IMG/VR virus record: IMGVR_UViG_3300042987_003051
Span: 1-64,000 of that record
Length of the DNA stretch: 64,000 nt
Source: a virus
Direction: 5' to 3' (one strand)
Every line of letters begins with the position of its first letter. Positions within the stretch are counted from its first letter, which is position 1. Of this stretch, positions 2,629 through 11,285 are shown piece by piece. The notes below the pieces were generated by a model. It was not told where the DNA came from. It worked only from the letters and a program-made list of their open reading frames with translations, and made no database searches. The position numbers were made by a program, and so were the translations under genes.

Positions 2629-2905
2629 GTTTAATGTTTTTGAGTTTAAGTATGGTAAAGAAAAAAAATCTTTAAAGGAATGGATAAAGATTGGTGTAAT
2701 ATTTCATGGGTCTTTAGATTTAGTGTCTCTAATTCCTGGTATAGAGAAGAAGAAACTTTTTAACTTTATTGACGAATTGCAGTTAAGAATGGGAACCATT
2801 GATATCATTAATGATTATGTTATTCAAGATTCGGAACTAATTTTATATCGTATAGATAGAGTAATTAATCAATCAATCTCTGAGTACGAAAAAAATAATG
2901 TTTAA
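2615..2905 (+). CDS. Hypothetical protein
   Basis: ORF track; overlapping start and stop codons. Confidence 0.55.
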   Translation: MSMTKFNVFEFKYGKEKKSLKEWIKIGVIFHGSLDLVSLIPGIEKKKLFNFIDELQLRMGTIDIINDYVIQDSELILYRIDRVINQSISEYEKNNV

Positions 2906-3338
2906 ACTTTTTGAGGTTAGAGGGGGAAAATTTACTGCACTTCCAAATATAAATCCAAAAACTATTTGGGGTTCAATTCTTGCAATTATTATTGTGGTGG
3001 TGGTTACATCTGTATCTGGGTGGTTGAAGATGGATGAGAAGGACATCTGGAAGCTCTATAACAATATTATACACTATTTTGGATTAAAAGAAAACACTCC
3101 AATCATTAACGACCAGAAGAAACTTGATGCTGAAGTAGAGTCCGAAGTTGATAGAGCAATCTGGGAATATGAACGCTTGACAGGTGATTATGGAACACCT
3201 AGAATACCTTTGCCACGGTTGATAGAGAAAGATCCAGATAAAGCTTTATGTTATACTAAAGAATGTCAATCTCTTGGAGGAGAAATGAGACTTTGTGCTC
3301 CTTGGGTTGAAGACTGCATTTCGAAAGATGATAAATAA
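2898..3338 (+). CDS. Hypothetical membrane protein
   Basis: One hydrophobic helix; Cys-containing C-terminus. Confidence 0.6.
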   Translation: MFKLFEVRGGKFTALPNINPKTIWGSILAIIIVVVVTSVSGWLKMDEKDIWKLYNNIIHYFGLKENTPIINDQKKLDAEVESEVDRAIWEYERLTGDYGTPRIPLPRLIEKDPDKALCYTKECQSLGGEMRLCAPWVEDCISKDDK

Positions 3339-3838: not shown

Positions 3839-4014
3839 AATCGTAGGAAGTGCAACACCTCTCTCTGGTTAAGACTGGGTGATGTGAAAGGTGATTCTGC
3901 CCGCACATAGAAATCCCTCCTACCATCACTTGACAATCCAAACCAACTCTGGTATGATTGTCTTATGTTAAAGGGTATGATATTATAAATAAATGTATCA
4001 TACCTTAAAGCAAA

Positions 4015-4368
4015 ATGCCATATAAAAGTAAGGAAGACTACAAAAACTGGGAAAAAGGATATCGAAATGGATATCGCCAAAGACCAGAAGTAAAACAAAA
4101 GTTATCCGAACAGAGTAAATTGCGACGAGAACGAAATAAAAATTTTGTTCTTGAAAAAATGACTCCCTGTATTTCATGTGGCGAAAGCGATCCTGTCGTT
4201 ATTGATTTTCATCACTTAGATGGATCACAAAAAGATAAAGGCATATCGCAAATGATGAATAGTAGTTATTCATTAAATAAAATTGAAGAAGAGATAAGCA
4301 AATGCGTTTGTTTATGTTCTAATTGTCATCGTAAAGTTCATGCTGGAACTTTAGAATTGCGGGTGTAG
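4015..4368 (+). CDS. HNH endonuclease
   Basis: CxxC...DFHH...CxNCHRKVH; late promoter TATAAATA at 3984-3991. Confidence 0.9.
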   Translation: MPYKSKEDYKNWEKGYRNGYRQRPEVKQKLSEQSKLRRERNKNFVLEKMTPCISCGESDPVVIDFHHLDGSQKDKGISQMMNSSYSLNKIEEEISKCVCLCSNCHRKVHAGTLELRV

Positions 4369-4429
4369 TTTAGAGGTAAAATTCCTGCCTTCCAAGCAGT
4401 GGTCACGGGTTCGATTCCCGTCACCCGCT
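4359..4429 (+). tRNA. tRNA-Gly(TCC)
   Basis: Cloverleaf; loop CTTCCAA; overlaps the HNH stop. Confidence 0.92.
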
Positions 4430-4453
4430 CTTGACTTTTTTCCAAAAAAGTCT

Positions 4454-4461
4454 TATAAATA
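4454..4461 (+). promoter_or_regulatory. T4-type late promoter upstream of the leader peptide
   Basis: TATAAATA consensus. Confidence 0.65.
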
Positions 4462-4482
4462 AAACATACTTGTTAAACAAAA

Positions 4483-4596
4483 ATGACTCGCTTATCGCAA
4501 AAACCCCAATTTACATATCCACTTGGCAATATGTCCGATTGGAATCTTTGTGTGCATATTGCGAGTGAGTCCCCTTCTGCTCTTATGGAAGAATAA
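4483..4596 (+). CDS. Putative attenuator leader peptide containing all 20 amino acids (MTRLSQKPQFTYPLGNMSDWNLCVHIASESPSALMEE)
   Basis: Manual translation; the last codons overlap an antiterminator strand. Confidence 0.7.
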   Translation: MTRLSQKPQFTYPLGNMSDWNLCVHIASESPSALMEE

Positions 4597-4654
4597 AAAT
4601 CTTCAACCATAAAAGCAAAAGGGGAGAGAAACCAAAAGTTTCCTCCCCTTTTTT
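4571..4654 (+). terminator. Attenuator: antiterminator (4571-4588 with 4607-4624) and intrinsic terminator (4621-4654)
   Basis: 16 of 18 complementary pairs; GGGGAG-GAAAC/GTTTC-CTCCCC followed by T6; both structures need the GGGG run. Confidence 0.75.
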
Positions 4655-4724
4655 GTTGGTTGTGACAGTTTCACAAGTGTCCACCAATCTCCCCCCAGAG
4701 ACCAAACGGTGGTATTCTAATCAA

Positions 4725-4764
4725 GTGGTCGAGAGAGACCACGCAGAACATCGACAACTTAATA
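4725..4764 (+). promoter_or_regulatory. boxB-like hairpin plus rrn boxA-like element before the tRNA array
   Basis: GTGGTC-GAGAGA-GACCAC followed by GAACATCGACAACTTAATA. Confidence 0.45.
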
Positions 4765-4781
4765 TTTATCCTATATTATCT

Positions 4782-4853
4782 GGGTCGTTGGCAGATCGGT
4801 TTATGCACCCGGCTTTTAACCGGTAGAGAGAGGTTCAACTCCTCTACGACCCA
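4782..4853 (+). tRNA. tRNA-Lys(TTT)
   Basis: Cloverleaf; loop CTTTTAA. Confidence 0.9.
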
Positions 4854-4854
4854 T

Positions 4855-4907
4855 TAGATGATTCAGCAATTTCTTACTTTCTTTTGGGTAGAAAAAACAA
4901 TCATCTA
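4855..4907 (+). ncRNA. Stem-CAGCAA hairpin element (outlying member of the DUF2828-associated family)
   Basis: TAGATGATT-CAGCAA...AATCATCTA; same stem as 10882-10928. Confidence 0.7.
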
Positions 4908-4912
4908 GTTTT

Positions 4913-5006
4913 GGGAGAGTGGCTACTGTCGGCAATATGTGTAGTCCGTGTCTGTAAAACACGTACATAGGAACCATCGGGGGTTCGATTCCCTCCTCTC
5001 CCACCA
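4913..5006 (+). tRNA. tRNA-Tyr(GTA) with enlarged D-loop and encoded CCA
   Basis: CGTGT-CTGTAAA-ACACG; T-loop TTCGATT. Confidence 0.88.
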
Positions 5007-10765: not shown

Positions 10766-10877
10766 GGGGAGGTAGCTCAGTTGGTAGAGCAACCGTCTAT
10801 AAAACCATCTTGTATAAGATGTATCTGCAATTAATACTAAAAACAGTTTGTCGTAAGTTCAATTCTTACCCTCCCCT
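10766..10877 (+). ncRNA. tRNA-scaffold RNA with the permuted stem-CTGCAA motif in place of the anticodon loop
   Basis: GGGGAGG/CCTCCCC acceptor, canonical D and T arms; insert CATCTT-GTAT-AAGATG-TAT-CTGCAA. Confidence 0.75.
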
Positions 10878-10933: not shown

Positions 10934-11052
10934 ACCAGAATAGTGTAATGGTAGCACGCTTAAACAATCGGTTATCTAGTTTTAGATACGGACAGCAATT
11001 TCTATTAATCCATAGGGAGGAGGAAGTCTAGGTTCGATTCCTGGTTCTGGTA
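10934..11052 (+). ncRNA. tRNA-scaffold RNA with the permuted stem-CAGCAA motif
   Basis: ACCAGAA/TTCTGGT acceptor; insert TATCTA-GTTT-TAGATA-CGGA-CAGCAA. Confidence 0.75.
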
Positions 11053-11167: not shown

Positions 11168-11285
11168 GCCGAAGTAGTGTAATGGTAGCACGTTAAAAAG
11201 CGGTTATCTAGTTTTAGATACGGACAGCAATTACTCTAAATTCCATTGTCAGGGAGAGGTTTGGGTTCGATTCCCGACTTCGGCG
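11168..11285 (+). ncRNA. tRNA-scaffold RNA with the permuted stem-CAGCAA motif
   Basis: GCCGAAG/CTTCGGC acceptor; same insert core as 10934-11052. Confidence 0.75.

Follow-up and report, generated by a model that had tools for sequence, protein, structure and literature searches.

The leader-peptide transcription attenuators of enterobacterial amino-acid operons, such as trpL, hisL, pheL, thrL and ilvL, are the closest described counterparts of an element that we analysed in viral DNA, positions 1 to 64,000 of the IMG/VR record IMGVR_UViG_3300042987_003051 (this whole stretch of 64,000 nucleotides is called the window below). A second group of attenuators responds more generally to translation stress or coupling and includes the pyrBI leader, antibiotic-responsive leader open reading frames (ORFs) and the upstream ORF of mycobacterial whiB7; we know of no report of a pyrBI/whiB7-type attenuator that precedes tRNA genes or belongs to a phage. 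The leader-peptide attenuators are treated in PMC1183508 and PMC3082878, and the translation-stress and coupling attenuators in PMC4335068 and PMC5021804. According to two further papers (PMC8421152, PMC10272220), the trn operon of Anabaena PCC 7120 is a long tRNA array induced by translational stress, and its control involves a repressor, TrcR, that binds TGTAGTAT at the -10 box; the strings “attenuat”, “leader peptide” and “terminator” do not occur in the main text of PMC8421152. The element in the window, at about 4431 to 4660, is a real and conserved module and forms the leader of the phage's main tRNA operon.

The module resembles the trp-type systems in that a short ORF follows the promoter and precedes an intrinsic terminator, and in that an alternative helix built partly from the ORF overlaps the 5' arm of this terminator. 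In the main lineage of homologues, a third pairing, between the 5' and 3' halves of the ORF, competes with the antiterminator in predicted folds, much as in trp-type leaders. The differences are equally clear: the phage leader has no runs of cognate codons, each amino acid being used one to three times; the genes downstream encode tRNAs and no biosynthetic enzymes; a late motif of the phage type is part of the promoter; only 5-9 nt of the terminator arm are shared with the alternative helix; and the host is a cyanobacterium. The pyrBI and whiB7 type would be similar in its signal, which in the phage leader would be ribosome progress itself and not a single amino acid, but those elements control pyrimidine or resistance genes. 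The Anabaena trn operon shares with our locus the setting, a tRNA array of the cyanobacterial world with an HNH endonuclease gene upstream, whereas it reaches a similar end through a protein repressor instead of attenuation, as far as these papers show.

In the window copy, the module starts directly 3' of a tRNA-Gly gene (4359-4430) with a promoter region (4431-4461, plus strand) that was read from the sequence and owes its assigned role to its motifs. The T4-type late motif TATAAATA (4454-4461) doubles as the -10 element of an overlapping σ70-like arrangement, TTGACT-17-TATAAA, whose TTGACT lies at 4431-4436 and is separated from TATAAA by a 17-nt spacer. The late-promoter motif at 4454 and the leader ORF at 4483-4596, both pointed out in an earlier note on this DNA (the sequence-only reading), can be read directly; the ORF lies on the plus strand, has 37 codons followed by TAA and translates to MTRLSQKPQFTYPLGNMSDWNLCVHIASESPSALMEE. 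Folds predict a structured ORF body (4486-4570), in which the 5' codons pair with codons 22-29 around a hairpin CCAAUU..GAUUGG. This is followed by a long hairpin (4570-4625), seen by eye and in folds, that we call the antiterminator: its 5' strand consists of codons 30-36, the stop codon lies inside an apical mini-hairpin, and its 3' strand consists of an A-rich spacer and the GGGGA of the terminator. Our hand count agrees with the 16 of 18 pairs claimed earlier between CCCCTTCTGCTCTTATGG (4571-4588) and CCATAAAAGCAAAAGGGG (4607-4624), both mismatches being C.A. The intrinsic terminator that had been placed at 4621-4654 is likewise present, with an 11-bp stem, one bulged A, a CAAAA loop and then TTTTTTGTTG (4621-4658 in all); the arms GGGGAGAGAAAC and GTTTCCTCCCC span 4621-4648 and are followed by T6 at 4649-4654. 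Alone, the terminator hairpin has a free energy of -15.6 kcal/mol, and its pairs are kept in 69-78 of 78 unique elements (here and below, counts of 78 refer to unique elements and counts of 77 to unique peptides of 32-38 residues). The 204-nt stretch at 4462-4665 is much more stable than shuffled sequences (z = -5.79, 0/200 as good).

Homologues were collected by three types of pattern. A pattern from a conserved element downstream, outside the module, returned 30 IMG/VR loci, of which 29 carry TATAAATA, the ORF and the terminator and the remaining one is cut by a contig end. A terminator pattern returned at least 119 stretches; 124 IMG/VR loci were analysed, and 119 of them have an exact TATAAATA together with the ORF, with three of the other five cut by contig ends. 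Degenerate patterns inside the ORF found 12 and 12 loci, a fourth lineage among them; all 12 loci from one of these patterns contain the module, and TATAAATA is exact in every new locus there. In total, the module occurs in four lineages, at 124 IMG/VR loci and in the phage S-PM2. Among 50,697 phage records the element was found in S-PM2 only (3 records), where the arrangement is the same and unannotated. A profile search of 1.84 billion protein representatives detected seven small relatives (32-38 aa), which had been predicted by gene callers.

The anatomy described by the sequence-only reading is well preserved across this set. The distance from TATAAATA to the ATG, the stop codon at the hairpin apex, the ORF itself and the overlap of the arms are kept in all four lineages, and the position ahead of tRNA-Lys recurs: tRNA-Lys lies at most 260 nt downstream in 110 of the 124 analysed loci, the rest comprising three with tRNA-Arg, six without a tRNA and five contig ends. 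A tRNA-Arg(UCU) gene stands upstream of the module in 79 of the 124. Most loci have 10-15 tRNAs within 1.5 kb, and lineage 4 is alike in this respect. Two loci, L021 and L106, have a rearranged or duplicated copy of the element 3' of the terminator. In S-PM2, the annotated hypothetical coding sequence S-PM2p162 (118191-118547, minus strand; 2706-3062 of locus L001) runs antiparallel across the promoter, leader ORF and terminator, and is probably a mis-call.

The 3' end of the ORF pairs with the terminator base more strongly than expected by chance. In the window, the antiterminator duplex has an energy of -25.1 kcal/mol against -13.2 ± 2.4 for shuffles (0/300 as good), and the 25-nt region 3, paired with the ORF 3' end, beats 300 dinucleotide shuffles in 13/13 representatives (0-6 as good). 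A 14-nt probe made of 6 spacer nucleotides and the first 8 of the arm outperforms 95 or more of 100 shuffles in 75 of the 78 elements; it invariably pairs 12-25 nt ahead of the stop codon, with 5-8 of its 8 arm nucleotides taking part.

The antiterminator 3' strand runs into the terminator 5' arm in every lineage, and the two sides change together. The terminator arm reads GGGGAG in the main lineage and the window, GGGAGGG in S-PM2 and GGGGGG in lineage 4, and the matching ORF strand reads CUCCCC, CCCUCC and CCCCC(C) or CCUCCC, respectively. Lineage 4 has a different terminator, GGGGGGC..GCCCCCC, but in the same place, and its ORFs read UCCCCCGUG, CCCCCCUG or UCCUCCCUG, each of which is complementary to CAGGGGGG(A). 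Pairing is accordingly better within lineages than between them: the mean duplex energy is -25.3 kcal/mol for own-lineage and -19.9 kcal/mol for cross-lineage combinations, with the own partner at least as good as the best cross-lineage partner in 10/11 cases.

The two states are also close in energy, the terminator and antiterminator forms being 2.2-5.4 kcal/mol apart in 6/6 representatives. The local minimum free energy (MFE) structure keeps the antiterminator, with the terminator base unpaired, in three of the six (window, L015 and L138). When the terminator 3' arm is left out, the MFE structure holds the antiterminator in 8/13 representatives, and a rod formed by the 5' and 3' halves of the ORF wins in 5/13. 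In the main lineage this rod, the equivalent of the structured ORF body, is predicted to sequester the AUG and to compete with the antiterminator; one of its pairs shows double changes, in three sequences. Pairing, co-variation and near-balance of two states are properties of an expression platform. Automated structure searches were less informative: RNAalifold on the 78 elements recovered the terminator only, the cross-lineage alignment not being a structural one, and a covariation scan within the main lineage found few double changes because region 2 hardly varies there. A model that masked the ribosome footprint scored 72/78 elements as “read through” with a ribosome at the stop codon, in a set-up that allowed pairs across the ribosome. 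A hairpin scan also lists the terminator hairpin on the minus strand; a bidirectional terminator serving minus-strand RNA was considered and rejected, as the neighbouring genes all lie on the plus strand and the A-rich spacer co-varies with the ORF.

We wondered whether the ORF is translated at all. The frame is open in 77/77 unique peptides from four lineages, and the ATG follows TATAAATA by 19-22 nt. ORF lengths in the main lineage differ by whole codons (33 codons in 44 sequences, 32 in 18 and 36 in one): the indels are 3-nt deletions at three separate places and one 9-nt insertion, whereas the aligned gaps of the 5' untranslated region and spacer include 1-nt gaps. The exception is L025, one of 30 loci, where a 1-nt deletion leaves a 35-codon frame that ends at a second TAA. 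An AGGT lies 8-9 nt ahead of the AUG in three lineages. From the conserved frame we infer that the ORF is translated. These data bear directly on the idea that the module is an untranslated, structured late RNA, a rod-like small RNA in which the ORF is incidental. Such an RNA would account for the very stable fold, for the sequestered AUG of the main-lineage rod, for the missing Shine-Dalgarno sequence (SD) of the window lineage and for a conservation that follows stems, the variable sites being distributed over the three codon positions as 16, 17 and 23. It leaves the open frames, the whole-codon length differences and the AGGT unaccounted for, and a search of Rfam with 4431-4780 returned no match at E <= 1 except the neighbouring tRNAs; we consider this explanation very improbable.

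The peptide itself is unevenly constrained. The ratio of nonsynonymous to synonymous polymorphism (pN/pS) is 0.43 overall. It falls to 0.05 in the codons of the central-hairpin stem (D, C, W, H, I) and to 0.08 in region 2 (P, L, F, A), against 0.45 for the N-terminal part, 0.89 for the C-terminal part and 0.98 for codons E,G,x. Codons in the loop of the central hairpin vary freely (R is replaced by Q, L or P, and Y by D, E, K or A), and a C-to-M change in L024 and L031 re-registers the central stem. Conserved helix codons, loose codons elsewhere and an open frame fit a leader that serves through its translation and not through its peptide.

The same observations were weighed against a stand-alone late gene that encodes a microprotein of 32-38 residues and ends in a strong terminator of its own, with the long hairpin stabilising the 3' end of the mRNA and the tRNA array using promoters downstream. 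The conserved frame, the gene-caller predictions of the seven relatives, the overall pN/pS, the terminator of textbook form and the promoter candidates that follow it would all suit such a gene, as would the peptide columns that hardly vary: across 16 aligned sequences from three lineages, M, Q, W, I and A never change and H hardly does, which could reflect a functional peptide. A microprotein gene does not explain why the ORF 3' end tracks the terminator arm across lineages, nor why the constraint is concentrated at RNA helices while loop codons are free and a stem can be re-registered by an amino-acid change. In Pfam and PHROGs, searched up to E = 1, the peptides matched no family, the only hit being a sub-threshold one to DUF6695 (E = 0.18, S-PM2 peptide). 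We regard the microprotein gene as possible, if on the doubtful side.

The explanation that we favour, with a probability of about 0.5, is that the module is a ribosome-dependent transcription attenuator at the head of the tRNA array. Judged from its sequence features, it probably ties tRNA output to ribosome performance. Transcription would start about 6 nt after TATAAATA, and the 37-codon ORF would begin about 15 nt later. The last ORF codons would provide the 5' strand of the long hairpin, and the A-rich spacer with the first bases of the terminator arm its 3' strand. A ribosome that had reached the end of the ORF when the polymerase made the terminator would unwind this hairpin, allow the full terminator to form and lead to release of a leader RNA of about 190 nt. 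If instead the ribosome lagged or stalled in the first ~25 codons, the hairpin would hold the base of the terminator open, and transcription would continue past a boxB/boxA-like signal into tRNA-Lys and the rest of the array. What such an element registers would be the overall speed of decoding and not one amino acid.

Several observations weigh against such an attenuator. Runs of regulatory codons, the hallmark of classical attenuators, are absent, each amino acid occurring at most about three times. The window copy has no SD, as the sequence-only reading had noted. The overlap between hairpin and terminator is only 5 nt in the window, and the anti-antiterminator is lineage-specific: the 5' half of the window-lineage ORF does not compete with region 2, and the two structures coexist. 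Folds without a ribosome give the antiterminator in 44/78 elements and a free arm in 34/78. The claim that the long hairpin and the terminator exclude each other holds only in part: they are near-isoenergetic competitors, but they share only GGGG(A), and the MFE structure of the 204 nt places the full terminator beside a shortened hairpin. The invariant peptide residues listed above also count here, and ribosome-mediated attenuation is, to our knowledge, hardly documented in cyanobacteria.

Promoter candidates beyond the terminator are a further point against it. The sequence-only reading had listed other promoters downstream, and the one it placed at 4713 corresponds to a σ70-like candidate, TGGTATTCT (4710-4718), between the terminator and tRNA-Lys. 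Lineage 4 also has one: its terminator contains TTGACA-18-TATTGT, a 10/12 σ70-like match (L134 10281-10310), with the -35 in the terminator loop and the -10 in the T tract, and this match overturned the notion that terminator and tRNA-Lys are too close together in lineage 4 to fit a promoter between them. Since σ70-like promoter candidates follow the terminator in all lineages, the array need not depend on read-through. The attenuator could govern only part of array transcription, plausibly the late part driven by TATAAATA. Another candidate, TCGACA-17-TATTAT (4751-4779), was dismissed as an unlikely tRNA-Lys promoter: it ends 2 nt from the gene, and transcription would start inside the tRNA.

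Contigs from RNA libraries give a hint that RNA passes the terminator. We used four metatranscriptome runs from four studies, without counting uncovered parts or the small-share runs X8-X15. In three runs, contigs bridge the terminator (342 nt, 4479-4813; 295 nt, 4496-4790; 358 nt, 4453-4810), and X2 and X3 show no coverage in the flanking bins 4000-4458 and 4816-4968. As support for read-through these contigs are weakened by the fact that they carry no strand, ends or level and that DNA in RNA libraries is possible.

The sequence-only reading had centred on amino-acid completeness, and for the window copy its description is correct: translation confirms that all 20 amino acids occur within the first 29 residues. 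Its statement that repeated residues mostly use different codons holds for Thr, Ser and Pro and in part for Leu, and fails for Gln (CAA twice) and Asn (AAT twice). The chance calculation that it had proposed gives P = 1.4e-4 for 20/20 in 29 codons, with Met given and the amino-acid composition taken from 57 long ORFs of the window. When a frame of 29 residues was slid along these ORFs, none of its 14,100 positions reached 20, and the leader ORF is the only one to do so among the 295 ATG-initiated ORFs of at least 29 aa in the window. Two other nulls, one drawn from stop-free frames within the tRNA array and one from random codons matched to the ORF in base composition, agree (~1e-4 or less). 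By our own arithmetic, such an ORF is unusual within the window, yet many such cases are expected among many millions of ORFs. Homologue comparison is therefore a useful test, because an event of 1.4e-4 per ORF arises by chance in large scans.

That comparison does not bear out completeness as a conserved design, for which homologues without full coverage had been named as contrary evidence. Only 4 of the 77 unique peptides contain 20 distinct amino acids; 43 contain 19, 25 contain 18 and five contain 15-17. Val is absent from 60/77 although the phage has a tRNA-Val. The S-PM2-type lineages have 15-19 distinct amino acids. A column-permutation test for compensatory retention of amino acids was not significant (18.635 against 18.538 ± 0.059, 325/5000 as high).

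Diversity short of completeness is a different matter. At least 18 distinct amino acids are present in 72/77 peptides, while the nulls for 33 residues average 15.2-15.6 and reach at least 18 with a probability of 6-8% and at least 19 with one of ~1%, so that the typical 18-19 distinct amino acids in 32-33 residues fall in the top 1-8% of the nulls. If only the 22-23 codons ahead of region 2 are counted, main-lineage peptides contain 15-19 distinct amino acids with a median of 17, against null probabilities of 1.2% for at least 17 and 0.13% for at least 18; S-PM2 and L106, with 14-15 in 24 codons, are ordinary. The high counts are not independent observations, because the lineages share ancestry. 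Diversity is moderately high in two related lineages, and completeness is not conserved.

A leader selected to contain every amino acid, and able to detect the depletion of any tRNA, such as that caused by anticodon nucleases, would draw on the complete window copy, on the high counts of most peptides and of the main lineage before region 2, and on a downstream tRNA array that is nearly complete. Against it stand the scarcity of complete peptides, the missing Val, the ordinary counts of S-PM2 and L106 and the permutation result, and we judge it improbable. A further reading extends the attenuator: the leader would be a gauge of decoding speed that samples 18-20 amino acids once or twice each and opens the late route into the phage's own, nearly complete tRNA set. 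Such a gauge would open whenever the supply of any tRNA or aminoacyl-tRNA lagged, through host shut-off, starvation or anticodon nucleases, and would close once phage tRNAs restored speed, which would make a homeostatic tRNA-supply loop out of a trp-type attenuator. We put this forward tentatively and think it rather unlikely in this specific form.

In our literature searches, no paper turned up that describes an attenuator or a leader peptide ahead of phage tRNA genes, and the available part of the paper on cyanophage S-CREM1 mentions no such attenuator (PMC9964418). Many phages carry tRNA arrays, and the regulation of phage tRNA expression is undescribed as far as we searched. A ribosome-coupled attenuator, if this is what the module is, would link tRNA supply directly to decoding performance and bear on the idea that phage tRNAs offset host tRNA loss. 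The hypothesis is directly testable because a cultured phage, S-PM2, carries the module.

The region between the terminator and the array contains two further conserved features. The first is a spacer element of ~65 nt (4659-4724, plus strand), with ~80% identity to S-PM2, which served as the search pattern outside the module. It ends in the extended -10-like CGGTGGTATTCT (4710-4718) and is missing from lineage 4 (L134-L139); RNAalifold found no structure in this downstream element on either strand. Within it, GGTGGTAT has 6/8 positions in common with the Anabaena TrcR site, as counted by eye and without statistics.

The second feature (4725-4757, plus strand), identified by sequence match, is a boxB-like hairpin, GTGGTC-GAGAGA-GACCAC, followed by the boxA-like GAACATCGACAA. 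The boxA of the cyanobacterial internal transcribed spacer, the rRNA spacer, is given as GAACCTTGAAAA in PMC8461337; by eye and without statistics, the boxA-like sequence matches it at 9/12 positions in the window, 10/12 in the main lineage and 11/12 in S-PM2. The arms of the boxB-like hairpin vary among lineages yet remain paired, and lineage 4 has the signal ~12 nt 3' of the terminator. A hairpin with a 9-11/12 boxA match between the terminator and tRNA-Lys resembles the boxB/boxA antitermination signals of rrn operons. It is a neighbour of the attenuator and unlike it would act afterwards, by putative Nus binding.

The main array begins with tRNA-Lys(UUU) (4781-4854, plus strand; ARAGORN). 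The sequence-only reading had the downstream tRNAs cover all 20 amino acids; ARAGORN supports 19 specificities 3' of 4654, and Tyr is represented only by a sub-threshold tRNA-like stretch (4913-5002). In this stretch the anticodon loop carries GUA (Tyr) and the D region is oversized; ARAGORN does not call it, Rfam scores it below threshold (27.8 bits, tRNA-Sec model), and it is kept in several relatives, for example L023 and L139. Rfam also matches tRNA models at 10766-10877, 10934-11052 and 11168-11285 (112-119 nt, 43-53 bits), again uncalled by ARAGORN; they could represent tRNAs that have acquired large insertions, or else tRNA-like chimeras.

On the upstream side, the promoter spacer (4433-4452) is itself a hairpin, GACTTTTTT..AAAAAAGTC, whose arms co-change from GACT/AGTC to GAGT/ACTC in S-PM2, L017 and L134. 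A protein may bind there, or the hairpin may form in RNA that arrives from the upstream tRNA. Further upstream, an abiF RNA motif (RF03085; 3635-3671, 45 bits against a gathering score of 37) lies directly 5' of tRNA-Arg(UCU); the motif is also present in S-CREM1, according to Table 4 of PMC9964418. An HNH endonuclease-like ORF (4015-4368, 117 aa) overlaps the start of tRNA-Gly at 4359. This HNH gene together with tRNA-Gly looks like an insertion, because tRNA-Arg(UCU) directly precedes the module in most relatives. An HNH gene is conserved 5' of the long tRNA arrays of cyanobacteria, as reported in PMC8421152.

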